A stretch of 64,000 nucleotides of DNA from Dehalococcoidia bacterium. Lineage in GTDB: Bacteria; Chloroflexota; Dehalococcoidia; SHYD01. The position numbers and the translations under genes are program-made. The stretch is from positions 666,580-730,579 of the forward strand of contig OZ244809.1 in the NCBI GenBank assembly GCA_965220215.1. The letters are read 5' to 3'. The notes under the pieces were generated by a model, which saw only the letters and a program-made list of their open reading frames with translations, made no database searches and was not told where the DNA came from. Below, one piece after another: positions 5,991-48,987 of this stretch (positions within the stretch are counted from its first letter, which is position 1; each line of letters opens with the position of its first letter).

Positions 5991-6761
5991 ATGAATATCC
6001 TTGTCATTGGCGACGTTGTAGGCACGCCCGGGCGGAGAGTCATCCAGTCCTCTTTAGAAAGCCTACGCTCTGAACTCGATATCGACCTGGTTGTAGCTAA
6101 TGGCGAGAATGCCGCTCATGGCCGGGGCATCACCGTCGGTCTCCTGGAAGAGATGCTGAACTCTGGGGTAGACGTGGTGACAACCGGCAATCACGTGTGG
6201 GACCAGCGGGAGTTCCTGCCGCACCTGGACTCCGATTATCCTATCATCCGACCGGTCAACTACCCTGATGGCGTGCCCGGCCGCGGCTATCTCATAGCGC
6301 AGGATGTGCTTATTGTGAACGCGATGGGCCGCACATTCATGCCATCGGTAGACTGCCCCTTTCGGGCTATGGATAAGCTGCTCTCTACGTTCAGCACCCT
6401 CCCTCGTACTATCCTGGTGGACTTCCATGCGGAGGCTACTTCAGAGAAGGTCGCTATGGGCTGGTACCTAGACGGTCGCGTGACCGCAGTGGTGGGGACG
6501 CACACCCATGTGCCTACCGCGGATGCCAAGGTGCTGCCCATGGGCACAGCCTTTGTCACAGACATCGGCATGACCGGCCCTTGCCACTCTATCATCGGCA
6601 ACGAGGTGGATGCCGTGCTTTCGCGCTTCCTTACCTCTATGCCTACCGCGCTGCCGGTTGCTGAAGGCCCGGCCCAGCTGAATGCCATGGTCATAGAAGT
6701 GGACGACAAGAGTGGCCGCGCCCGCTCCATCAGGCGCATTGAGCGCAGCGAGCGAGAATAA
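5991..6761 (+). CDS. ymdB: YmdB-like metallophosphoesterase (TIGR00282 family)
   Basis: MNILVIGDVVGTPGRRVI...VVANGENAAHGRGIT matches the YmdB N-terminus closely. The start is at ATG 5991. Confidence 0.8.
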   Translation: MNILVIGDVVGTPGRRVIQSSLESLRSELDIDLVVANGENAAHGRGITVGLLEEMLNSGVDVVTTGNHVWDQREFLPHLDSDYPIIRPVNYPDGVPGRGYLIAQDVLIVNAMGRTFMPSVDCPFRAMDKLLSTFSTLPRTILVDFHAEATSEKVAMGWYLDGRVTAVVGTHTHVPTADAKVLPMGTAFVTDIGMTGPCHSIIGNEVDAVLSRFLTSMPTALPVAEGPAQLNAMVIEVDDKSGRARSIRRIERSERE

Positions 6762-37659: not shown

Positions 37660-38673
37660 TCACACCCCGTTAGTGGACGCCAGCACCCGGCTTAGCTGCT
37701 CAAAGGACTCGGCCTGCTGCTCAAACACATAGTTGGGCGGAAACACGGTCACGCTGGCGGCCCCAATGCTCCTGAGGTGTTGCACCGCCTGCAACAACTC
37801 GGGCTTACGCACTACCACCGTCACGGCGTACCAATCCTGCTCCTCGCCGTACCGGCTATACACCTTGGAGACCGTGGGCCCACGCATGCCCGCGGCCGCG
37901 GGATGGCTGATGACGCCCTGGGCCACCGACTCCGGAGTGTCGCCCCGGATGTTGGCCGTGATGCTGAAATAGTCCCTGGCCCGCAGGTTGGCCTCGATCA
38001 TCTCAAGCATGCGCTTGGTGGTCTCCAGCGCCACGCTGTTCTGACGCAATGCCTCTAAGTTGCCAATGAGGCAAGACTGTGACGTGAGAATGTTGCCATC
38101 GGTCAGGGTTTTGAGGCCGTTCTCTCGCAGCGTGGTGCCGCTGGAGGTGAGGTCGGCGATGACATCGGCAAAGCCCATGGTCGGCGCGACCTCGATGGCC
38201 CCCGTCGACGCCACCAGGTTGAAGTAGTTCAGCTCTTTACGCAGCAGAAACTCCCGCACCAACCGGGGGTACTTTGTGGCGACCCGCAGCTCCTGGCCCC
38301 GGTCCCGCAGCTCCTCAGAAACCTCCACCATGTCCGCCATGGAGGAGACGTCTATCCAGGTCTCCGGCACCGCAAGTACTAGATAGCATCCCCCATACTC
38401 CAGGTCTTCCATCAGTACATGGGTATCGCTGCCTTCGTGCAGGTGCTCCCTCACAATGTCCAGTCCGGTGATACCCAGGTCTACGCTGCCTTCCTCCACC
38501 TTGGCGGGGATGTCCGCCGCGCGCTGGAAGAGGACGGTGGTGTTGGGCAGCGCCGGGATGGCGGCCATGTACTGGCGCTCGTTGGGGCGGTTGACGCTCA
38601 GCCCGCACGCCCGCAGGAACGCAAGCGTGGGCTCTTCTAGTTCGCCCTTGCTGGGCAACGCTACACGTAACAT
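37660..38673 (-). CDS. hisG: ATP phosphoribosyltransferase, long form with C-terminal regulatory domain
   Basis: MLRVALPSKGELEEPTLAFLRACGL...DLGITGLD; the C-terminal ~90 aa resemble the HisG regulatory domain. Confidence 0.9.
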   Translation of the reverse strand: MLRVALPSKGELEEPTLAFLRACGLSVNRPNERQYMAAIPALPNTTVLFQRAADIPAKVEEGSVDLGITGLDIVREHLHEGSDTHVLMEDLEYGGCYLVLAVPETWIDVSSMADMVEVSEELRDRGQELRVATKYPRLVREFLLRKELNYFNLVASTGAIEVAPTMGFADVIADLTSSGTTLRENGLKTLTDGNILTSQSCLIGNLEALRQNSVALETTKRMLEMIEANLRARDYFSITANIRGDTPESVAQGVISHPAAAGMRGPTVSKVYSRYGEEQDWYAVTVVVRKPELLQAVQHLRSIGAASVTVFPPNYVFEQQAESFEQLSRVLASTNGV

Positions 38674-38680
38674 AGCTTGC

Positions 38681-40117
38681 TCACGCCACCGATAGCTCTT
38701 GCAGGCGCCCCGCGCCTACAACGACTACACGCCCGATGCCCGCCTGCTGGCAGTAACTCAACCGCTCTGCCTCTGATCGAAGCTCCACTTCCAACACTGC
38801 GGCCACGCCTTGTGCCCGCAGTTGCTCCGCTTGTCGTACGGCCTCGGCAAAGTCGCTGTCCCGCTCTGCCGCTACCAGGACGCCGGCGGGTTCGCCGGAC
38901 GCTGCGGCGCCTCCGGGCGCGCTCGCCAGGAGGTCCTCCAGGGTGTAGGCAAAGCCCAGGGCTGGCACGCTGGCTGGCCCGCCTAGGGCCGGCACTAATT
39001 CGTCGTAGCGGCCGCCCCCGCCCACGGGGCGGGAAGCATCGCCTGCGTATAGCTCAAAGACAATGCCGGTGTAATAGCCCAGGGGCCGGATAAGCCCCAG
39101 GTCCAGCTCAATAGAGATGCCGTCCAGGTGGAAGGCGTCCAGGGTAGTAATGACCGCCTCCAATTCCTGCAGCAGCGGGAAGGCTACGCCGTAGCGCGAT
39201 GCAATAGCTGCGCCCGCCTGTAGCGCGTTGTTTGGCGACTCCCGTACCTGGCTCAACTCCTGCACCAGTCCTAGCGCCCGCTCGATGTCCTGAGGCTGGT
39301 CCGTAGCCTGATACTTAGCCCGGAAGCGGCTGATGATCTCCTCCGGCCCGCGCCGGCCGGTGGGACGGGTTGCGCCCGCCTGCACAAACCATTCCAACAA
39401 GCCCAGCGTATCCTCCATCGCCGCGCCGGCAGCGCTCCTTGCTTCCGCTTGCTCTTCAGGAAGCTCTGCCTCGTCGGGAGACGCGGTCTGAAGCGCGCGC
39501 AGCCCTTCACGTAACTGCTCCACTCCATCTTGGCTGCTGCGCACCAGCGCAAGGTGGTTCGCGAGATAAAGCTGGGAACGCTCCGAGAGCCCGATGCCTG
39601 CCAACAGGCTGGGCAACAGGCCCGCGTGGCCCAGCACCAGCCGCGGTGACGGCGCCCCAATGGCGCGCATCCCCTGGCAGGCCAGAGCCAGCAACTCCGC
39701 GTCGGCGCGGGGCGTGCCCCCACCGATGAGCTCGGCTCCTAGCTGGGTGAACTGGCGCAGCTGCCCTTGACGAGTATCGCCGTCCCGGAAGACAGGGCCG
39801 CAGTACTGCCAGCGTAGCGGTAGGGACAGCTCCTGAGCGTGGTTGATATAGCTGCGGATGATCGAGCCGGTGAACTCCGGACGCAGGCAAAGGCGCTCGC
39901 CCTCTTGGTCGGTGAAGGTGAACATGAGGCCCGCCACCTGGCTACCCAGCTTGCGGAGATAGAGGTCGACGCGCTCCAGCACCGGCACCTCGACCTCTTG
40001 ATAGCCGTAGGAGGCCAGCAAGGCCTGTAGCCGTTGCTGCGCCTGCTGCACCAGAGAGAGCCCTAGCCGGCGCCGGTCTTGTGTGCCTGGAAGCGGCGTT
40101 TGCGATCGATCCGTCAC
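38681..40117 (-). CDS. hisZ: Histidyl-tRNA synthetase-like protein (HisZ/HisS family) at the head of the his operon
   Basis: Class II aaRS HisRS-type motifs LRPEFTGSIIRSY, GPVFRDGDTRQGQLRQFTQLGAEL and GGGGRYDEL, with a GTG start. The 478-aa length and a C-terminal alpha/beta segment suggest an anticodon-binding-like domain may be retained. Confidence 0.7.
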   Translation of the reverse strand: MTDRSQTPLPGTQDRRRLGLSLVQQAQQRLQALLASYGYQEVEVPVLERVDLYLRKLGSQVAGLMFTFTDQEGERLCLRPEFTGSIIRSYINHAQELSLPLRWQYCGPVFRDGDTRQGQLRQFTQLGAELIGGGTPRADAELLALACQGMRAIGAPSPRLVLGHAGLLPSLLAGIGLSERSQLYLANHLALVRSSQDGVEQLREGLRALQTASPDEAELPEEQAEARSAAGAAMEDTLGLLEWFVQAGATRPTGRRGPEEIISRFRAKYQATDQPQDIERALGLVQELSQVRESPNNALQAGAAIASRYGVAFPLLQELEAVITTLDAFHLDGISIELDLGLIRPLGYYTGIVFELYAGDASRPVGGGGRYDELVPALGGPASVPALGFAYTLEDLLASAPGGAAASGEPAGVLVAAERDSDFAEAVRQAEQLRAQGVAAVLEVELRSEAERLSYCQQAGIGRVVVVGAGRLQELSVA

Positions 40118-40251
40118 GTTATCCTGTTCTTAGTTACTTAGTTTTATTGTACCCCAGGCAGGCATACCTAGCCACTCATAAGAGAACGTAGAAAGGCCGC
40201 TTCTTGTACATTGCCCGCCACAGCGCAGCTTTGGTATCCTTCCCAGTTGTA

Positions 40252-40326
40252 AGTGCTGTAGCACAGCCGGGAGAGCATTTGTCTGGCAGACAAGGGTCAG
40301 GGATTCGAGTCCCATCTGCTCCACCA
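40252..40326 (+). pseudogene. Degenerate tRNA-Ala-like remnant (duplicate of the tRNA at 41624-41699 including about 45 bp of upstream sequence)
   Basis: About 85% identical to the intact tRNA-Ala. It has acceptor and D-stem mismatches (AGUG versus GGGG at the 5' end, A:A in the D stem) and a 1-nt deletion. The shared upstream block GTACATTGCCCGCCAC[A/C]GCGC[A/G]GCTTTG.. occurs at 40206 and 41578. Confidence 0.6.
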
Positions 40327-40345
40327 AACCTCCGCTAGGGAAAAA

Positions 40346-41185
40346 ATGACAAACATCCATGGCACAGGACCCGTTTTCACTTCCCAACTCTTTCCGCAAC
40401 TCCTCGACAATCTGCTCGGTGTGCTGGAGTCGCTTAGGCCTGGGGAGTGGTATATGCCGACTCCGTGTCCTGGATGGTCAACTCACGACTTGGTTGCGCA
40501 TATTCTCGGGGGCGAGGTTGGACAGTTGTCTATGGAACGCGATGGGTTTAATGCTTCTTTGGTCACCGCGGACAACTGGGATGATTTCGTCAGGGGACTG
40601 AACGACTTAAACGAGCAATGGGTTACAGCTCTCAGGAGGGTGAGTCCTCAACTATTGATCGACCTTCTGAGATCAACAGGAGACCAGGTGAACGGGTACC
40701 TTGAGTCGCTTGACCCTTACACTGTCGGTCCTATAGTGAGCTGGGCAAGCCCTGATCCCGTTCCTATGTGGCTGCACATCGCTCGCGAATATACGGAGCG
40801 CTGGCACCACCAGCAACAGATCCGGGAAACGGTAGGCAGACCGCTGCTAACCGACCCAGGCTGGTTTGCCCCGGTCCTGGCGACCTTCGTGTACGGCCTG
40901 CCACGCGCTTACTCTGAGGTCGACGCCCCCACAGGCACAAGGATCAGGGTCACTATATCGGGCCCTTCGGGCGGGACCTGGACGGTATCCCGCTCCCAAG
41001 CTGAATGGGTGCTGCTTTACGGTGGGACTGGGAAAGCTGCCGCCGAAATCACGCTCGATGAGGCTGACGCTTGGAAGCTGTTCACCAAGAGCATCGCCAG
41101 AAACATCGTAGAGCCGCGGGTTATACTCGAAGGAGATCGAGAGCTTGGATTGAAGGCTCTGGACACAGTATCGATCATCGCATAG
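40346..41185 (+). CDS. DinB/YfiT-like (mycothiol-dependent maleylpyruvate isomerase N-terminal domain family) protein
   Basis: WSTHDLVAHILGGEV...His-rich DinB_2-type N-terminal pattern. GC is lower than the core genome. It sits between the two tRNA-Ala copies. Confidence 0.65.
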   Translation: MTNIHGTGPVFTSQLFPQLLDNLLGVLESLRPGEWYMPTPCPGWSTHDLVAHILGGEVGQLSMERDGFNASLVTADNWDDFVRGLNDLNEQWVTALRRVSPQLLIDLLRSTGDQVNGYLESLDPYTVGPIVSWASPDPVPMWLHIAREYTERWHHQQQIRETVGRPLLTDPGWFAPVLATFVYGLPRAYSEVDAPTGTRIRVTISGPSGGTWTVSRSQAEWVLLYGGTGKAAAEITLDEADAWKLFTKSIARNIVEPRVILEGDRELGLKALDTVSIIA

Positions 41186-41623
41186 GAGGGATAAGCATAT
41201 CCTTTATCACCGTCCTGCATGCCCTGGCAGATTCACAGAGAGAGTACCAACTCGAAAGTGGTACTGTGTACAGTCCACGATGGCCCACCACTTCCAAGCT
41301 GAAGCGGTAGATGTTTTCCTGGGCGGGACTGAGGGCCAAGGCTCCCGCCAAGTCCCAGTTCTCCCTCCTCTCACTGTTCGGGTGGTCTCTCGGCTGGGAA
41401 CAGGGCAATAGACGCCGGCTAAACCGCTGACACGTCTAGGGGTGGGTGCTGCAGTACCGCTGCTCAGACCGATATCTACGGTGGTCAAAGAGGCTAATTG
41501 CGCCGTAGCATCGCAATGCAGCAAGTTCCTAGGCTACACATTAGCTAGGTGCGGCGTCAGACTCATCCCATGAACACGTACATTGCCCGCCACCGCGCGG
41601 CTTTGCTATACTTATTGCTTATT

Positions 41624-41699
41624 GGGGCTGTAGCTCAGCTGGGAGAGCATTTGTCTGGCAGACAAAGGGTCAGGGGTTCGAGTCCCCTCAGCTCCACCA
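41624..41699 (+). tRNA. tRNA-Ala (anticodon GGC)
   Basis: Folded by hand: 7-bp acceptor stem with the G3:U70 Ala identity pair, anticodon loop CUGGCAG, T-loop UUCGAGU and an encoded CCA. Confidence 0.9.
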
Positions 41700-41702
41700 A
41701 AT

Positions 41703-41817
41703 TAGACTAAACCGAAAACCTAACACTACGGTTTGTTCTTTACCTGTAATGAGGCCCAAGTCCGTGCCTTTGCGTGCCTTTGATCGATGGCCCTCCGTGT
41801 TCCTTGCAGGCAGGCTC
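41703..41817. repeat. About 115-bp imperfect direct repeat, left copy (partner at 45046-45161)
   Basis: About 85% identity. The shared core is CACCTGTAATGAGGC[C/G]CAAGTCCGTGCCTTTGCGTGCCTTT. Confidence 0.7.
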
Positions 41818-42013
41818 TTGGGATGCACACCATCAACTGAACCGTCTCACTACACCTGCCAACAGGCTATGTGAAAGCAATCGTCTCTTCGGGCGTAGCT
41901 ATGGATTTCTATGCCCATCTCGAAACAGGCTTCGTCCGGGCCAAGCGCCTGAATGGACCTGGCACAGGGTGGACGAACTCTTGTGCGACGCAGCGGCAGC
42001 AAAGGAGCAGGTC

Positions 42014-42889
42014 ATGCGAGCAGTGATTGCAAAGCGTAAGCGGATGGTGCCCACGGTCGCATCCATAAGCGTGGTGAGCCTCGCGCTCATCGTGAGTGTC
42101 ATCTGGTTCCTTGGGACCCCGGGGCAGGCTCACGCGTGTAAGTGTGCGGAACCCGGTTCTCCTTCCGAAGAGCTGGGGAAGTTTGCAGCAGTCTTCGCAG
42201 GGAGAGTCGTCTCGATTGAACACTCCTATGACCCCAATGCAGCGTCTGTCTCCCCCGGGGACCGCACCACGGTTGGCTTTGAGGTCAGCGCCGTGTGGAA
42301 GGGGGCTGTTTATGAAAGCATGTATGTAACCACGCCACCAACTGGCGGGAGTTGCGGTTTTGCCTTCATCGAAGGAGGGGAGTACATCGTCTATGGTCAC
42401 GACAGCAACTATGATGACGGCGGCTATACCGTTGGCATATGCAGTCGCACGGCCCTCCTTGGACAAGCGCAAGCTGATCTCGACGCGCTAGGGGAGGGCA
42501 GTGCTCCTCAAGCCGGGACGGGCGGACCAGCGCCTGAACAACCACAGGACGGGGAGGGCAGTGCTCCTCAAACCGAGGTGGGCGGACCTGCACCTGAACA
42601 ACCACAGGACGGGGAGGGCAGTGCTCCTCAAGCCGAGGTGGGCGGACCAACGCTTGAACAACCACAGGACGGGGAGGGCAGTGCTCCTCAAGCCGAGGTG
42701 GGCGAACCAGCGCCTGAACAACCACAGGACGGGGAGGGCAGTGCTCCTCAAGCCGAGGTGGGCGGACCAGCGCCTGAACAACCACAGGATACGGTTGCAG
42801 GTAGGGCGTGGATAATCATTCTGGCAGTTGCTGCGGCGGTTGTTGTAGTGAGCGGGAGCGTAGTGTACGCACGTGTCAGGCGTCGGTAG
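42014..42889 (+). CDS. Secreted TIMP/NTR-like domain protein with five tandem 20-aa Pro/Glu/Gln-rich repeats and a C-terminal transmembrane anchor
   Basis: The signal peptide ends AHA, then the mature N-terminus CKCAEP matches the TIMP CxC start. Further TIMP-like blocks are AAVFAGRVV, VWKGAV, YVTTPPTGGSCGF and GEYIVYGH. The start at ATG 42014 has an AAGGAG Shine-Dalgarno sequence. Confidence 0.6.
   Translation: MRAVIAKRKRMVPTVASISVVSLALIVSVIWFLGTPGQAHACKCAEPGSPSEELGKFAAVFAGRVVSIEHSYDPNAASVSPGDRTTVGFEVSAVWKGAVYESMYVTTPPTGGSCGFAFIEGGEYIVYGHDSNYDDGGYTVGICSRTALLGQAQADLDALGEGSAPQAGTGGPAPEQPQDGEGSAPQTEVGGPAPEQPQDGEGSAPQAEVGGPTLEQPQDGEGSAPQAEVGEPAPEQPQDGEGSAPQAEVGGPAPEQPQDTVAGRAWIIILAVAAAVVVVSGSVVYARVRRR
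42491..42787 (+). repeat. Five near-perfect 60-bp tandem repeats (in-frame, encoding DGEGSAPQAEVGGPAPEQPQ)
   Basis: GGGGAGGGCAGTGCTCCTCAAGCCGAGGTGGGCGGACCAGCGCCTGAACAACCACAGGAC occurs five times with 1-3 substitutions each. Confidence 0.9.
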
Positions 42890-43216
42890 GTTCACAGAGC
42901 CCCCAGCCACATCTCGAACACGGTACCACCTACCCCACGTAAGCCACTAAACTGGACAAAATCAAGAACCTTCATTCTTTGGAATCAATAAACACGGAAA
43001 ACTCCGATACTCATGGGCGGTCGGTTTGGGTCCATTCAAGCCGGGTAGGATTTTTAGACAATAGCGTGCGCCCCAAAGAGGCTGGCGGAGGAGGGTCGCC
43101 GCGGGGACGCGTATGGTATGCGACGGACGGATCGAAATTCCGGTTTCGTCCTCCAATGGGCTGAGCCGAACCGCCCCGGCCGGATGGATCGCAATGTCCC
43201 CCGGCAGCCGTCCCCG

Positions 43217-43465
43217 TCAACTGAACCACTCCAGCTCGTAGCGCCCGGGCTCCCCGTCGATCTCCCCGTAGGTGGCAAGGTCAAACATTGGGAGTTCATT
43301 GGCATCAGGCATCCACACGAACGGTAAGGGCACGTCTCCGAAATCCCTGCGAGCGCACCCGTGCTCCTTGAGCCACGACTCAGAGACCCACGACGGCATC
43401 ACGTACTGGCCACCCTTGACACGCTGGACAACTGGCGTCGGCTGGTGGTGCGGTACGATTGGCAT
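43217..43465 (-). CDS. Hypothetical protein (possible gene remnant)
   Basis: 82-aa ORF in a 600-bp stretch with no clean long ORF. I recognise no family. Confidence 0.25.
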   Translation of the reverse strand: MPIVPHHQPTPVVQRVKGGQYVMPSWVSESWLKEHGCARRDFGDVPLPFVWMPDANELPMFDLATYGEIDGEPGRYELEWFS

Positions 43466-43586
43466 ACCGACGTCTACATCGCATTCCCGACTATCGCCTG
43501 CTTCATGACCACACTGTCAAAGATTTTGGGATAGGTTCATGACTCTCGTTTTCTAAGACCTAACGCTTTTAGCAGGCGCGCGCTTT

Positions 43587-44246
43587 TCAGCGTCGCCTGG
43601 CTAAACTTGCTAAGCCCTTTATGGTAGATGGCAATTCCCTAAACGTAGCGACCTTGGCAGTTGCCTTGGACAAATCGTGAGCTGCAGTGAACTCGTTCGC
43701 AACCACGATGCAGTCAATACCCGCCGCTATTGCCGACTTCAACCCTCTCGCCGAGTCTTCAATAACCACCGTTTCAGCGGCAGTAGCACCAAAGCGTTGG
43801 AGTCCTCTCAAATAGGGCTCGGGATGTGGTTTAGCTCGCTCGTAATCCTCCCGAGTTAAATAGAATTCCATATGATCCAGGATGGATCGCCTTTCGTGTA
43901 TTAAGGTGAAATCAGGTGGTTTGGAGGTAGTAATTATGCCCATCCTGTACTCACTTGCGAGTACGTCTAGCGTTTCCAAGACACCCTCGATTTCGATGTC
44001 TTCGGTGATCAGGTATTCCTGGTAGTACCGGTTTCTTAGTTCTCGGCCACGATTAATTTCAGATTCGGATATTCCTGAAACTCGTGCCGCCTCCCACGCG
44101 GAAACCCCATTGGCCATATTCACCAAATATGCGTCTCGTGGGAGATCAATTCCGAGAGATGCCAGCGCTCGTTTGTTTGCCAGGTAATACCAATGTTCTG
44201 TTTCGACTAAAACCCCATCATGGTCAAAGAGAATGTATTTTTTCAC
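43587..44246 (-). CDS. HAD-superfamily hydrolase (phosphatase/beta-phosphoglucomutase-like)
   Basis: MKKYILFDHDGVLVETE has the HAD motif I DxDG. Downstream motifs are IITTS and EDSARGLKSAIAAGIDCI. GC is markedly lower, about 45-50%. Confidence 0.75.
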   Translation of the reverse strand: MKKYILFDHDGVLVETEHWYYLANKRALASLGIDLPRDAYLVNMANGVSAWEAARVSGISESEINRGRELRNRYYQEYLITEDIEIEGVLETLDVLASEYRMGIITTSKPPDFTLIHERRSILDHMEFYLTREDYERAKPHPEPYLRGLQRFGATAAETVVIEDSARGLKSAIAAGIDCIVVANEFTAAHDLSKATAKVATFRELPSTIKGLASLARRR

Positions 44247-44351
44247 TTCTGTGCTCGATTCAATTTCGGCTTAACGATCAAGCTAACTTGACGAGCTCCT
44301 TGCGCTAAGCCGAAAGTCGCCTTGTTCACTGAATGAAGAAGCCATACCCCA

Positions 44352-44786
44352 TCACATCGGCTCAGCAACGAACACCGGTATCCTCCGCTCCGTCCGGCTC
44401 TGATACTCCTCGTAGGGCGGGAACGCTGCCACTGCCAGTTCCCACAACCGCGCTCTTTCCTCTGCATCCACAACTTCGCGGACCCGCATCGCGCACACCT
44501 CGGTCTCGTCCCGAATCTCTACGTTACCGTCCGCCCGGAGATTGTGCACCCATTCCGGGTTCTTCGGCGCACCGCCTCTAGATCCCACCAAGATGTACTT
44601 GTTCCCTTCCTTCACCCGCATCAGCGGCGTCTTTCGGATTGCCCCGGTCTGGTTTCCCTTATTCGTCACAATGATTACGGGCAGTCCGGTATCGCGCAGC
44701 GTCGTCCCTTCTTTGCCCTCACTCCCCTCGTAGAGCTCCACCTGCTCGCGAACCCAATCCATGGTCGACGGTATGTACTCTGACAT
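44352..44786 (-). CDS. Deazaflavin (F420)-dependent nitroreductase family protein (DDN/DUF385)
   Basis: PVIIVTNKGNQTGAIRKTPLMRVKEGNKYILVGSRGGAPKNPEWVHNLRADGNVEI is the DDN-family split-barrel signature. Confidence 0.7.
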   Translation of the reverse strand: MSEYIPSTMDWVREQVELYEGSEGKEGTTLRDTGLPVIIVTNKGNQTGAIRKTPLMRVKEGNKYILVGSRGGAPKNPEWVHNLRADGNVEIRDETEVCAMRVREVVDAEERARLWELAVAAFPPYEEYQSRTERRIPVFVAEPM

Positions 44787-45045
44787 GTTTCCGTTCTGCC
44801 TCCCAATTAACAGTTGCTTGCCACCTAATCATAGTGCGAGTCTCTGCTAACCACCAATACCACCACGGCTTCCCAACTGCACGCTTACCCTTGTTTCTCT
44901 GTCCATTGCCACTACAAGACGTGAATCCAAAAAGCGGAGTTGACAGCATGCCAATAGAGCCTCTCAATCATAAGCCATACCTTGACTTACCCCCGAAGAC
45001 TTGGGCAGAACAGCCGCGCCTGACATTGGCTCCCCAGACTAGCGC

Positions 45046-45161
45046 CTAGACTAAGTTAAGAACCTAAACGCTGCGGTTCGTTCTTCACCTGTAATGAGGC
45101 GCAAGTCCGTGCCTTTGCGTGCCTTTTATCGAAGGCCCTCTGTGCACCGTGCAAGCAGGCT
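45046..45161. repeat. About 115-bp imperfect direct repeat, right copy (partner at 41703-41817)
   Basis: See the left copy. The repeat-encoded pseudo-ORF starts MPLIDGPPC and MPFIEGPLC are artefacts of this repeat. Confidence 0.7.
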
Positions 45162-45721
45162 CGACGCTCACGATCTCGCCAGTCCCCCAGTTCTTAACTT
45201 ACGTTGTCCCACGCAAACCTCGTGACAGCAGGATAGGTGTCCCGTTCACTTATGCACTCCTGGTCGAGTGTTCAGACACAAGCGGTCTAGTTCCTTCCCG
45301 GCGGGCGGTGCTGCGGAATATGCCGGCGACTCCATGCCTTCAGGGTTGATACAAGAAGGCACCAAGCCGCCTTCCGCTTTACCAGATCGAGGTCCTACTC
45401 GCTCAACGGACTGCGTTCCAGCAAGGCTTATTGTTCCGCAACCTGTCAGCACTTGGCCGGATTGAACAGTTTGCGCTCGGCGGCGGAGAGCCATACCCTG
45501 TCTGGAACCGACGCGTGAGCGCGCTATATCGTCGCTCCGCCTGGGGTGCTATAATTTAATCATCAACTCAAAGATAGTATTGCCTACCGTAGAGTTAGGC
45601 TCACTAAATACCTTCAGTGCGGAGAAGAGCAGGTGTGTAATCAGAGCCTCACCCTTAGCAGCGGGGTACAGCCCGGCACGTAAGGCCGAGAGGCCTCCTC
45701 CTGCATAGGAGAAGACGAGAC

Positions 45722-45750
45722 GGGCAGGGCAAAGACCCTGCCTTTTGTGT
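45722..45750 (+). terminator. Intrinsic-terminator-like hairpin plus U-tract 22 nt upstream of the 45772 start codon
   Basis: GGCAGGG-CAAAGA-CCCTGCC followed by TTTTGTGT. A second hairpin, AGGCCGAGAGGCCT, lies just upstream. Confidence 0.5.
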
Positions 45751-45771
45751 GCGCAGTCTGGGAGTTGTGAG

Positions 45772-46518
45772 ATGGCAACCATAAGGGAACAGATTATCGA
45801 ACGGGCATTAGAGCTTCTTAGAAGCCATCCCGACGGCATCCGCTACGCAGAACTCGTCCGAAAAGTGGTTGAGTCCGACCCATTATTCAAAAGCGCTTAT
45901 GTAGACTCAAACGTATGGAACTTACACATGCAGTTCCCCGAGAAGGTTTATAAGCCGGCAAGAGGCTTGTATAGACTGACCGAATATCGCGATCAAGGGA
46001 CTGACCAACTTAAGCCAGAACTTGTTCCTAAACCCCCACTGAAGATAAAGGAAGAGGATTTCTACGGGCCGTTCGCAGACTGGCTAGTGAACGATCTGGA
46101 AGACTGTACAAAGGCGATTCCGCTAGGCGGGGGCAAGTTCAAAGATAAATGGGGAACACCAGACGTAATTGGCAAGCGGGAGTCCAGACCAAGCGATATT
46201 CTGCAAGCGCCTACAGAAATTGTATCGGCGGAAATTAAGCTGGATACCCAGCAATTGGTAACCGCATTCGGACAAGCCTGTGCTTATCGTCTGTTTAGCC
46301 ATAAATCGTATCTAGTTGTGCCTAAAGATTCGCCCCAAGACGAAGTAGCTAGATTGGATGCGTTATGCCAAGTCTTCGGCATCGGATTGATCTTGTTTGA
46401 TGCGTCTTCCCCAGAAGACCCTGGTTTTGACATCCTTGTTCGCCCTCGTAAACAAGACCCAGAGATGTTTTACACAAACAAGTACTTGAAGCTCATTGAA
46501 AAAGAGATGTTTTCCTAG
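45772..46518 (+). CDS. Hypothetical low-GC protein: N-terminal winged-helix-like domain plus C-terminal PD-(D/E)xK-like nuclease pattern
   Basis: GC is about 48%. The N-terminus HPDGIRYAELVRKV..KPARGLYRLTE reads as a winged-helix wing. The C-terminus has DWLVNDLED ... GTPDVIGK ... IVSAEIKLD, which I read as E ... D ... ExK. Confidence 0.5.
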   Translation: MATIREQIIERALELLRSHPDGIRYAELVRKVVESDPLFKSAYVDSNVWNLHMQFPEKVYKPARGLYRLTEYRDQGTDQLKPELVPKPPLKIKEEDFYGPFADWLVNDLEDCTKAIPLGGGKFKDKWGTPDVIGKRESRPSDILQAPTEIVSAEIKLDTQQLVTAFGQACAYRLFSHKSYLVVPKDSPQDEVARLDALCQVFGIGLILFDASSPEDPGFDILVRPRKQDPEMFYTNKYLKLIEKEMFS

Positions 46519-46530
46519 TCGGAGTAACTC

Positions 46531-48987
46531 ATGGCAGAACGGTACAACCCCCAAGAGATAGAACCCAAGTGGCAGGAACGCTGGGAAGCGGAGGGCCTCT
46601 ATCGCCTCAACCCAAATCCCAGCAAACCCAAGTGGTATGCCCTCACCATGTTTCCCTACACCTCGGGCGACCTCCACTGCGGCCACTGGTACGCCATGGG
46701 CCCCTCCGACGTGCAGGCCCGCTACAAGCGCATGAAGGGCTACGACGTCTTCTTCCCGGTGGGGTTTGACGCGTTCGGGCTGCCGGCGGAGAACGCCGCC
46801 ATCTCGCGCGGCATCCACCCACAGAAGTGGACGCTGGACAACGTAGTGCGCATGCGGGGCCAGCTCCGTAGCATCGGCGCGATGTTCGACTGGGACCAGG
46901 AGATTATCACGTGCCTGCCAGAGTACTATCAGTGGAACCAATGGCTCTTCCTGCAGTTTTACAAAAAGGGCTTGGCCTATCGCGCCAAGGCTGCCGCCAA
47001 CTGGTGTCCTAGCTGCCAGACGGTGCTGGCCAACGAACAGGTAGCGGCGGACGGCACCTGCGAGCGCTGCCATACCGTCGTGACCAAGCGGGACCTGGAG
47101 CAGTGGTTCTTCCGCATCACCCAGTACGCGGACGAGCTGCTGGAGTTTGGCGATCTGGAGTGGCCCGAGCGGGTTAAGACCATGCAGACCAACTGGATCG
47201 GCAAGAGCTACGGCACCGAGATGACCTTCCCTCTGGAACGGCCAGACCTGCCTGAGAAGGAGATCCGCGTCTTCACCACCCGGCCGGACACCATCTACGG
47301 AGCGACCTTCATGGTGCTGGCCCCGGAGCATCCCCTGGTGGCGCAGCTCACCACCGCCGACAAGCAGTCAGAGGTGGACGCCTATCTGGAGGAGACCCGC
47401 CTCCGATCAGATATAGAGCGGCTCTCCACCGTGGGGGAAAAGAGCGGTGTCTTCATTGGCGCGTACTGCGTAAACCGCTTTACCGGGCAGCGCATCCCCA
47501 TATTCATTGCAGACTACGTGTTGATGCACTACGGCACCGGCGCGGTCATGGCCGTGCCCGCCCACGATACCCGTGACTTCGCCTTCGCGCAGAAGTACAG
47601 CCTGCCCATCGTGACCGTCATCGCGCCGCCGGGCTACCAGGGCGAGCCGCTGACCGAGGCGTACGTTGATCCCGGCGTCATGGTGAACTCCGGCGACTTC
47701 AACGGCCTCTCCAGCACCGAGTTTATGGACAAGGTGAAAGACTATACGGAGGCACAGGGCTGGGGCAGCCGCAAGGTGTCCTACCGGCTGCGGGACTGGC
47801 TCATCTCCCGCCAGCGATACTGGGGCACGCCCATCCCTATCATCTACTGCGACCAGTGCGGCATCGTGCCACTGCCGGATGACCAGCTCCCCGTGTTACT
47901 GCCGGAGGACGCGGAGTTCAAGCCCACGGGCGAGTCGCCGCTGAAGTACCACCAGGGCTTCTTCAACACGACCTGCCCCGACTGCGGTCGTCCCGCCACC
48001 CGTGAGACCGACACCATGGACACCTTTGTCGATTCCAGCTGGTATCAGATGCGCTACCTGAGCCCCGGCTATGATCAAGGACCCTTCGACCCAGCGGTGG
48101 CGGCAGGCTGGCATCCGGTGGACCAGTACACCGGCGGCGCAGAGCACGCTACGATGCACTTGCTCTACGCCCGCTTCTTCCACAAAGTGATACGAGACCT
48201 GGGGCTGGTAGACACGCCGGAGCCCTACCTGCGCCTGTTCAACCAAGGGCAGATCCTAGGGACAGACGGCCAGCGCATGAGCAAGTCCCGGGGCAACGTA
48301 GTTGCGCCCGATGAAAATGTCTCCAGGTACGGCACAGATACCTTCCGCGCCTACCTCATGTTCCTAGGCCCTTGGGAGCAGGGCGGCCCTTACAACACCG
48401 ACGGCATCAACGGCATCACGCGCTGGGTAGGCCGCGCGTGGACACTGGTGCTGGACACCTGGACTGCTTCACGCTCCGGCACGCCGGGCGAGACGCCATT
48501 GAAGGAGCTGCAGCGTGTCACCCACCAGACCATCCGCCGCGTGGATGAAGACCTGGCCGATTTCCGCTTCAACACCATGCTGGCTGCGCTCATGGAGTTC
48601 ACCAACTATCTGACCAAGCCGGAGACCCAGGCGCTCAGAGGCACACCGGAATGGCGCGCCGCCCTGGAATCGCTCATCCTAATGATCGCGCCCAGTACAC
48701 CTCACGTGGCAGAGGAGCTGTGGGAGCGGACCGGCCACCGTTTCAGCGTGCACCAGCAGCCGTTCCCTACCTGGGACCCCGCGCTGGTGACCAACGAAGA
48801 GATCACCCTGGTGGTGCAGGTGAACGGCAAGGTGCGGGACAAGCTCACCGTAGCCACCGGCGTGAACGAGGCCCAGGCCCGGGAGCTGGCCCTGGCATCG
48901 GACAAAGTGCAGTCGCAGCTAGACGGCAAGCAGGTGGCGCAGGTGATCTACGTGCCCGGCCGTCTTGTGAACGTGGTCGTGCGATAA
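46531..48987 (+). CDS. leuS: Leucyl-tRNA synthetase
   Basis: 818 aa with the HIGH-type motif (PYTSGDLHCGHWYAMG), KMSKS (RMSKSRGN) and the CP1 editing region. Confidence 0.95.
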   Translation: MAERYNPQEIEPKWQERWEAEGLYRLNPNPSKPKWYALTMFPYTSGDLHCGHWYAMGPSDVQARYKRMKGYDVFFPVGFDAFGLPAENAAISRGIHPQKWTLDNVVRMRGQLRSIGAMFDWDQEIITCLPEYYQWNQWLFLQFYKKGLAYRAKAAANWCPSCQTVLANEQVAADGTCERCHTVVTKRDLEQWFFRITQYADELLEFGDLEWPERVKTMQTNWIGKSYGTEMTFPLERPDLPEKEIRVFTTRPDTIYGATFMVLAPEHPLVAQLTTADKQSEVDAYLEETRLRSDIERLSTVGEKSGVFIGAYCVNRFTGQRIPIFIADYVLMHYGTGAVMAVPAHDTRDFAFAQKYSLPIVTVIAPPGYQGEPLTEAYVDPGVMVNSGDFNGLSSTEFMDKVKDYTEAQGWGSRKVSYRLRDWLISRQRYWGTPIPIIYCDQCGIVPLPDDQLPVLLPEDAEFKPTGESPLKYHQGFFNTTCPDCGRPATRETDTMDTFVDSSWYQMRYLSPGYDQGPFDPAVAAGWHPVDQYTGGAEHATMHLLYARFFHKVIRDLGLVDTPEPYLRLFNQGQILGTDGQRMSKSRGNVVAPDENVSRYGTDTFRAYLMFLGPWEQGGPYNTDGINGITRWVGRAWTLVLDTWTASRSGTPGETPLKELQRVTHQTIRRVDEDLADFRFNTMLAALMEFTNYLTKPETQALRGTPEWRAALESLILMIAPSTPHVAEELWERTGHRFSVHQQPFPTWDPALVTNEEITLVVQVNGKVRDKLTVATGVNEAQARELALASDKVQSQLDGKQVAQVIYVPGRLVNVVVR

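Follow-up and report, generated by a model that had tools for sequence, protein, structure and literature searches.

A stretch of 64,000 nucleotides from a Dehalococcoidia bacterium (Chloroflexota; assembly GCA_965220215.1, contig OZ244809.1, positions 666,580 to 730,579 of the forward strand), referred to here as the window, harbors a complete gene at positions 42014–42889 of its forward strand. The gene encodes a precursor of 291 amino acids followed by a stop codon, and the precursor is composed of a predicted Sec-type signal peptide, a domain resembling the N-terminal domain (N-domain) of the animal tissue inhibitors of metalloproteinases (TIMPs), a stalk of five tandem repeats, and a C-terminal membrane anchor. 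Translation and homologue searches showed computationally that the gene is real and conserved and that its product is secreted and C-terminally anchored. A Shine–Dalgarno-like AAGGAG, read from the sequence, is positioned 6 nt 5' of the ATG on the same strand (42002–42007). The open reading frame (ORF) finder also listed a longer version of the gene with a GTG start at 41774; the ATG at 42014 was preferred, as the close homologues all begin at the equivalent Met.

The signal peptide comprises residues 1–41 (42014–42136, forward strand) and reads MRAVIAKRKRMVPTVASISVVSLALIVSVIWFLGTPGQAHA, after which the translation continues with CKCAEPGSPSEE at the mature N-terminus. It contains a basic n-region (KRKR), a hydrophobic core, which corresponds to a hydrophobic helix at residues 14–34 in the full-length structural model, and the c-region GTPGQAHA with A-x-A at positions −3 and −1. 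The cleavage site predicted from the sequence rule, i.e., A-H-A followed by Cys, conforms to the −3/−1 rule. Among 130 distant relatives, the residue preceding the first Cys was Ala in 127, position −3 was occupied by Ala, Val, Ser, or Thr, and position −2 was bulky (Tyr, His, Phe, or Leu in ∼80%). This is the pattern of a signal peptidase I A-x-A site and not of a lipobox, and hence a free N-terminal Cys is predicted family-wide. The lipobox pattern [LVI][ASTVI][GAS]C is absent from the window protein, which reads Q-A-H-A-C at this position, and was not found among the relatives inspected for the end of the signal peptide. Cleavage after Ala41 is predicted to leave Cys42 as residue 1. A preliminary description of the locus, made from the DNA letters, had ended the leader at GQAHA and started the mature protein with Cys-Lys-Cys; both are seen in the translation, and the predicted A-x-A site recurs throughout the family.

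The domain that starts with this Cys-Lys-Cys is a TIMP N-domain-like OB-fold domain of ∼120 residues (residues 42–162, mature 1–121; 42137–42499, forward strand), which ends with LGEG and was delineated by profiles, hhalign, AlphaFold2, and Foldseek. The link to TIMPs is visible at the family level only, since the window protein alone matched no Pfam and no NCBIfam entry; a single-sequence search of the PDB returned marginal matches to calicivirus 3C proteases only. An alignment of 49 diverse family domains (A2) was used for the profile, for hhalign, and for the AlphaFold2 model. Searched against the PDB with HMMER, the A2 profile matched the N-domain of human TIMP-2 (E = 1.2e-8), TIMP-1 (E = 3e-3), and TIMP-3 (E = 7e-3), all aligned from residue 1, and TIMPs were the only family to appear apart from marginal calicivirus protease matches (E = 0.29–1.4). 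Comparison of A2 with the TIMP-2 N-domain by hhalign gave a probability of 97.2% and E = 3.3e-11 over 103 columns; the identity to TIMPs is ∼18–22%. When the 49 domains were scanned singly, the TIMP family PF00965 was matched by 18 (best E = 2.5e-8) and the generic NTR family PF01759 by one (E = 0.014), which does not place the domain in PF01759. The three landmark blocks singled out in the preliminary description are the very pairs made by hhalign with TIMP-2, namely, AAVFAGRVV with ADVVIRAKAV, VWKGAV with MFKGPE, and TTPPTGGSCGF with YTAPSSAVCGV (window/TIMP-2), and the profile similarity to TIMP/NTR families that it anticipated was found at the family level. The window domain is almost certainly homologous to the TIMP N-domain.

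Structural modeling of the window domain on A2 with AlphaFold2 yielded a mean predicted local distance difference test score (pLDDT) of 93.2 and a predicted template modeling score (pTM) of 0.87. A Foldseek search with this model returned TIMP-1, TIMP-2, TIMP-3, or the PCOLCE NTR domain as all of the top 19 PDB matches; the best superposition was on N-TIMP-3 from its complex with TACE (TM-score of 0.76, root-mean-square deviation of 2.7 Å), and the next matches were agrin NtA, the C345C domains of complement C3/C4/C5, and the meteorin NTR domain. Among the viral structures of BFVD, no match was better than E = 1e-2. The OB-type NTR fold that had been expected from the letters is thus present in the predicted structure. 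Exposure of the Cys by cleavage, the fold, and the profile similarity were the points on which the preliminary description had staked the TIMP idea; all three were examined, and none refuted it.

The domain contains four invariant cysteines at mature positions 1, 3, 73, and 102 (codons 42137–42139, 42143–42145, 42353–42355, and 42440–42442, forward strand; family alignments), and exactly four Cys are present in 94 of 98 family domains. In the profile alignment as well as in hhalign, they align with Cys1, Cys3, Cys72, and Cys101 of TIMP-2. In TIMPs, these four residues pair in two disulfides, by which the N-terminal segment is held to the core and the inhibitory ridge is formed. The positions of the ridge disulfides (Cys1–Cys70 and Cys3–Cys99 in TIMP-1) are therefore kept by alignment, and of the conserved disulfide pattern looked for in the preliminary description, the positions of two of the three N-domain pairs were recovered whereas the third is absent. 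At the N-terminus, the family consensus is C-S-C-[V/A/I]-x-P-G-[S/P]-P-x-E-E. The second residue is Ser in 80 of the 98 domains and Thr in seven, the same residues as in TIMPs, and Lys in eight, these being the cases from the clade of the window. The loop preceding the third Cys is S-[G/S]-A-S-C-G-[F/Y]-x-F in the family as compared to SSAVCGV in TIMP-2. Only three of the 444 relatives fetched (P0157, P0189, and P0210) carry two or three tandem copies of the domain. Their first copy always shows Ala followed by C-x-C, and none of the four internal copies does: two are without the N-terminal Cys pair and two carry C-x-x-C. Small as this sample is, the loss of C-x-C from internal copies fits a motif that would be useful only at a free N-terminus.

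At its other end, the protein is anchored by a transmembrane segment at residues 265–285 (42806–42868, forward strand), which reads AWIIILAVAAAVVVVSGSVVY and lies within a helix predicted at residues 260–290 of the full-length model. It is followed by ARVRRR and the stop codon, the basic cytoplasmic tail RVRRR (42872–42886, forward strand) providing a stop-transfer or positive-inside signal. The hydrophobic anchor with RVRRR given in the preliminary description is accordingly present in both the translation and the model. Similar basic tails occur in relatives from other phyla (RRSKR, RRRKS, KGRKR, and RKYKK). A C-terminal transmembrane-like segment was observed in 191 of 269 relatives and an LPxTG-like sorting signal instead in 30; the window protein has the hydrophobic stretch and the basic tail but no LPXTG. 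The same order of elements, i.e., signal peptide, CSC domain, LG.G, short linker, transmembrane helix, and basic tail, recurs among members of Bacillales, Myxococcota, and Moranbacteria. Tethering at the C-terminus is the topology that leaves the N-terminus free; in TIMPs, the N-terminal Cys is critical for inhibition, which is abolished by one extra Ala (PMC2871463).

Variation in the C-terminal part was also seen. Among close Chloroflexota relatives (P0004, P0012, P0018, P0026, P0070, and P0120), the anchor switches within the clade between a plain transmembrane helix with an RRR tail and LPSTGG or LPNTGG followed by a hydrophobic stretch and RRLSRR, and a third, Trp/Cys-rich type of C-terminus (…WCTNV) is found in P0042, P0045, and P0073. 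In some members, the TIMP-like domain at the N-terminus is joined to large and unrelated regions on its C-terminal side (P0207, 978 aa; P0175, 468 aa; P0126, 437 aa; P0123, 320 aa). Fusions of the Nitrosopumilus type (P0215, P0224, and P0257) range from 325 to 818 aa; NCBIfam assigns a WING-49 domain to residues 164–210 of the longest, P0215, and P0224 continues with sequence that reads like a repeated beta-propeller type.

An indexed search identified 445 homologues, and an exhaustive HMMER search with the mature domain retrieved 4,352 clusters (50% identity) at E ≤ 1e-3 and 750 at E ≤ 1e-10. The HMMER matches nearly always started at query residue 1 and ∼25–45 residues into the subject protein. 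All 80 reference-genome loci recovered with the close-clade profile belong to metagenome-assembled genomes of Chloroflexota, Dehalococcoidia, or SAR202. One of the 80, MPMM01 SAR202 bin22, originates from a sponge microbiome, that of Aplysina aerophoba (PMC5649159). Other bins carry labels that resemble those of sponge or coral holobiont bins, which they may be. Beyond this clade, family members occur in many free-living Bacillales (Halobacillus, Lederbergia, Ureibacillus, Psychrobacillus, and Lysinibacillus), in Paenibacillus, Myxococcota, and Candidatus Moranbacteria, and in the archaeon Nitrosopumilus. Precomputed PF00965 matches exist for about half of the distant members listed, and UniRef and JGI already name some members "Tissue inhibitor of metalloproteinase," while the NCBI names members as hypothetical proteins; an NCBIfam scan of the well-annotated relatives found no curated family covering the domain. 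An identical 192-aa TIMP-like protein was observed in two Halobacillus assemblies (L084, GCA_022919835.1, and L085, GCA_022921115.1; gene at 6001–6579) with differing surroundings, one copy being placed among transposase, resolvase, and IS21 genes. This suggests recent horizontal transfer of the gene.

Between domain and anchor, residues 160–259 are encoded by five tandem 60-bp units (42491–42790, forward strand; Tandem Repeats Finder and unit alignment) with the consensus GEGSAPQAEVGGPAPEQPQD, which form an acidic stalk rich in Pro, Gly, and Gln. Tandem Repeats Finder reported a period of 60 bp, 5.0 copies at 42491–42789, 93% matches, and a score of 535. Alignment of the five units gave a mean column identity of 97% with 10 variable columns, in line with the near-identical 60-bp repeats first described. 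The five 20-aa repeats that were called perfect are not so, as four of the five units differ from GEGSAPQAEVGGPAPEQPQD by one or two residues (AGT, TEV, PTL, and GEP variants). In the full-length model, residues 162–259, which cover the five repeats, showed pLDDT below 50 and no secondary structure. A contig of another, independent assembly (L002) encodes a protein of 96% identity with the same five-unit array at 99% DNA identity, and hence the array is not an assembly artifact.

Most proteins of the close clade are ∼211 aa long and contain a single linker unit, GEG.APQAGTGGPAPEQPQD; two show a different, two-unit duplication, and of 176 proteins fetched from the close clade, P0001 alone has five units like the window. 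The ancestral "AGT" version of the single-copy linker survives in unit 1 of the window, and units 2–5 share "AEV/TEV," which indicates that the ancestral linker was amplified together with the last residues of the domain (GEG). The window and L002 have unit-specific variants in common (ACC in unit 2 and CCAACGC in unit 3), and the five-unit state therefore predates their split. As judged from these sequences, the expansion of the stalk from about one unit to five is lineage-specific. The recent expansion or ongoing slippage suggested in the preliminary description thus holds as far as lineage-specific growth is concerned; ongoing slippage was not supported and was rejected, since in L002, the sole close comparison, the copy number is the same and the unit-specific variants are shared.

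These features can be put together in a model of function. Cys42, freed as residue 1, would start an OB-fold domain of ∼120 residues homologous to the inhibitory N-domain of TIMPs, and two disulfides, Cys1–Cys73 and Cys3–Cys102, would staple the domain as in the TIMP ridge, judging by the alignment. The ∼100 disordered acidic residues of the five 20-aa units would hold the domain off the membrane, in which the transmembrane helix and the RVRRR tail would anchor it. Were the domain to work as TIMPs do, Cys1 would use its free alpha-amino and carbonyl groups to chelate the catalytic zinc of an extracellular metzincin-type metalloprotease, and the S1' pocket of the enzyme would take up residue 2, i.e., Lys here and Ser in most of the family. 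Tethered in this way, such an inhibitor would shield the cell surface. As an overall account of the locus, a surface-anchored TIMP-style inhibitor is the explanation to which we lean, if only slightly; whether the domain inhibits at all, which is argued from the TIMP analogy, hangs in the balance. As a speculation, Lys2 in the clade of the window might point to a target favoring a basic P1' residue. Enzymes that prefer a basic P1' include the M43 ulilysin or mirolysin type and the M35 Lys-N type.

A number of observations speak against an inhibitor, starting with the failure of the window protein to match Pfam by itself. TIMP-2 Cys13 aligns with a non-Cys position, and the third N-domain disulfide (Cys13–Cys124 in TIMP-1, Cys13–Cys126 in TIMP-2) is missing. 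The C-domain of TIMPs with its three disulfides is missing as well, as nothing but the repeats, the transmembrane helix, and the basic tail follows residue 162, and Cys does not occur again. A Lys at position 2 is, to our knowledge, not typical of natural TIMPs. Both the cleavage of the signal peptide and the formation of the disulfides are predictions, and no biochemical data or published assay on any prokaryotic member was found in the literature searched. No ORF with an HExxH motif is present anywhere in the 64-kb window. ORF clustering over ∼80 Chloroflexota loci found neither a conserved neighbor nor a consistently nearby protease, and the M16 peptidases that come closest to the latter are, as far as we know, not TIMP targets. 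The neighborhoods of Nitrosopumilus, two Halobacillus genomes, Lederbergia, Paenibacillus, and Moranbacteria also contain no protease; these six differ from one another, and some include transposases or resolvases. The NTR domain of PCPE-1 inhibited none of MMP-2, BMP-1, or the ADAMTS enzymes even when it started exactly at its first Cys (PMC2871463), and the fold and the N-terminal Cys are therefore not sufficient for inhibition.

The last point is shared by the main alternative, in which the domain has the ancestry and fold of TIMPs but blocks no protease and serves instead as an NTR/OB-fold binding module, i.e., a surface adhesin or a ligand-binding domain comparable to agrin NtA (which binds laminin), netrin, complement C345C, or the PCPE NTR domain. 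The structural matches to PCOLCE NTR, agrin NtA, C345C of C3/C4/C5, and meteorin NTR would be expected of such a module, as would the lack of a conserved protease partner in any neighborhood read and the fusions to large and varied C-terminal regions (P0207, P0215, and P0175), and a stalk with an anchor is a typical adhesin layout too. The sequence is nevertheless far nearer to TIMPs than to other NTR domains, both in the Pfam scans (18 of 49 domains for PF00965 against one of 49 for PF01759) and in the PDB sequence search, which found TIMPs only. The start of the domain exactly at the mature N-terminus with C-x-C, a hallmark of TIMPs versus other NTR domains, is almost universal and is lost in internal copies, and the ridge residues (Ser/Thr2 and the SxSCG loop) are conserved. 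A binding module is accordingly regarded as possible, though distinctly less probable than the tethered inhibitor.

It is improbable that the N-terminal cysteines act as functional thiols, with Cys42 lipid-modified or C-x-C binding copper or zinc like the periplasmic OB-fold metallochaperones. A Cys directly after the signal peptide is also a hallmark of lipoproteins, and the Listeria protein Tim, the only bacterial TIMP-like protein to have been studied, is a lipoprotein with the lipobox LTAC (PMC8235301); the bulky residue at −2 and Ala, Val, Ser, or Thr at −3 follow the signal peptidase I pattern instead, and the lipoprotein reading was rejected on these residue statistics. The C-terminal transmembrane or LPxTG anchor would make an N-terminal one redundant, and the four Cys map onto two TIMP disulfides. 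As for metal binding, the C-terminal part of a close relative gave a sub-threshold NCBIfam match to LpqS, a putative copper homeostasis (lipo)protein (E = 0.0027), but at 18 bits against a cut-off of 35, and in the linker and transmembrane region outside the domain. The marginal viral matches raised still another idea, a remnant or relative of the chymotrypsin-like barrel of calicivirus 3C-type cysteine proteases, in which GGSCGF would resemble the active-site turn GDCGCPY. The similarity to the C-terminal barrel of norovirus 3C-like proteases weakens from E = 0.017–0.03 for the single sequence to 0.05–0.08 for the close-clade profile and 0.29–1.4 for the diverse profile, while the TIMP match strengthens; it covers ∼60 residues of one barrel only, with no counterpart of the catalytic His or acid, and no protease was present among the listed structural matches. 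It was rejected on its weakening with broader profiles and the missing support from the fold search, and an origin from such a protease is considered extremely improbable.

The tethered TIMP-like protein of the window can be compared with several known systems. With animal TIMPs (PF00965, MEROPS I35), and with the N-domains of human TIMP-2 and TIMP-3 in particular, it shares secretion, the mature C-x-C start, an OB-fold NTR domain of ∼120 residues, the positions of Cys1–Cys72 and Cys3–Cys101 of TIMP-2, and the blocks [F/W]KG and S-x-x-C-G. It differs in being prokaryotic, in lacking the C-terminal TIMP domain and the third N-domain disulfide, in Lys2, and in its attachment to the cell through a repeat stalk and a transmembrane helix (LPxTG in some relatives). 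The prokaryotic proteins automatically labeled as TIMPs, e.g., in Halobacillus shinanisalinarum, Lederbergia citri, and Paenibacillus albidus, belong to the same family (profile E ∼1e-38 to 1e-44) and have the same architecture, with Ala followed by C-S-C, and are likewise encoded by solitary genes in variable contexts; no experimental study of them was found in the literature searched. Their residue 2 is Ser, their linker is short and unrepeated, and about half of them reach PF00965 by themselves, whereas the Chloroflexota clade of the window has Lys2, all but a few of its members escape Pfam, and the stalk in the lineage of the window is five-fold.

Tim of Listeria monocytogenes, from the Mtz–Tim pair, is also bacterial and cell-associated, with a predicted TIMP-like fold and a proposed interaction with a metzincin (PMC8235301). 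Unlike the window protein, it is a lipoprotein with an LTAC lipobox, resembles TIMPs in structure only, and is encoded next to its metzincin (PMC8235301). In the window protein, a signal peptidase I site and a C-terminal anchor are combined with detectable sequence homology to TIMPs, and no co-oriented metzincin gene of the Listeria type is adjacent to it. The PCPE-1 NTR domain, agrin NtA, complement C345C, and meteorin have the same OB-fold as the window domain; except for agrin NtA, these modules are internal or C-terminal and natively without a free N-terminal Cys, and the sequence similarity of the non-inhibitory NTR modules to the family is much weaker, as the PF01759 scan indicates.

In animals, TIMPs count as textbook regulators of the extracellular matrix, and the evolutionary studies of TIMPs that were read treat them as metazoan. 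The Listeria study of 2021 found no literature records of bacterial TIMP-like proteins (PMC8235301), and bacteria are unmentioned in a 2023 study of TIMP evolution (PMC10755359). No paper describing a prokaryotic TIMP-homologous family was found in the part of the literature that was searched. The existence of the family is not in itself novel, as databases already assign the TIMP label to part of it; the novel points are the explicit case for family-wide conservation of the inhibitory determinants, the consistent topology with a C-terminal anchor, the size and taxonomic spread of the family, and the Lys2 and five-fold stalk of this lineage. The prokaryotic family keeps the features of TIMP inhibitors, i.e., the free N-terminal Cys-x-Cys, the two ridge disulfide positions, and the S-x-S-C-G loop, on a cell-anchored stalk. 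If its members are inhibitors, they would constitute a major unrecognized class of prokaryotic protease inhibitors, with a bearing on the origin of animal TIMPs, and could offer small two-disulfide scaffolds for inhibitor engineering; if not, they would exemplify the use of the TIMP/NTR fold outside animals. A bolder and unlikely extension is that the TIMP N-domain is not an animal invention but descended from, or was exchanged with, a very large prokaryotic family of surface-tethered metalloprotease inhibitors with an N-terminal Cys, and that the Lys2 variant on its long stalk in the Chloroflexota clade would neutralize metzincins of hosts or competitors at the cell surface, e.g., as a means of resisting digestion or of influencing matrix remodeling in the host.

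The immediate neighbors of the window gene code for DinB/MDMPI-like, HAD, and F420H2-dependent quinone reductase proteins. PADLOC defense models gave no match, Rfam detected only tRNA in the 5' region, and a promoter/terminator scan identified one promoter-like site before the tRNA and no terminator. The commonest neighbor among the ∼80 Chloroflexota loci is an M16 peptidase, present in 16 of them at 1.5–4 kb downstream, non-adjacent and on the same strand, with the same other neighbors in 11–13 of the 16. As it is non-adjacent and the same other genes co-occur, it belongs to a syntenic block of one subclade, and it was rejected as a partner on this ground. This pitrilysin-type zinc peptidase is ∼1,000 aa long with an N-terminal hydrophobic segment and is positioned at ∼9.4–15.5 kb in each of the loci L027, L033, L035, L036, L038, L039, L040, L042, L044, L046, L050, L053, L065, and L078; a phage-type integrase is present ∼6 kb away in 11 of these.

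Repeats were also observed around the window gene. A tRNA-Ala(GGC) gene (41624–41699) and ∼45 nt of upstream leader (41578–41701) have a degenerate copy 1.37 kb upstream at 40206–40328, with 82–92% identity, an Rfam tRNA score of 31 bits at 40252–40323, and no call by ARAGORN. The two copies flank the DinB/MDMPI-like gene (40346–41185), and the leader of the intact copy contains a sigma-70-like promoter match (41583–41612). The first copy of a 96-nt direct repeat (41722–41817 and 45067–45162; 88% identity) begins 22 nt past the tRNA-Ala gene, and the second is located 3.3 kb further downstream. Between the two are the genes for the TIMP-like protein, HAD, and F420H2 quinone reductase as well as a small ORF. 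No Rfam family matched the repeat. The window contains exactly two occurrences of the repeat core, against zero expected by chance, and L002 contains at least one at the corresponding syntenic position (6338–6363). The direct repeat may be the scar of an insertion or duplication at a tRNA-linked hot spot. The GC content is 0.47–0.60 in the region 40000–46500 as compared to 0.63–0.68 in the flanks, which contain histidine biosynthesis genes (37660–40117, reverse strand) and leuS (46531–48987, forward strand), and the low GC together with the repeats suggests a small variable island between core genes.

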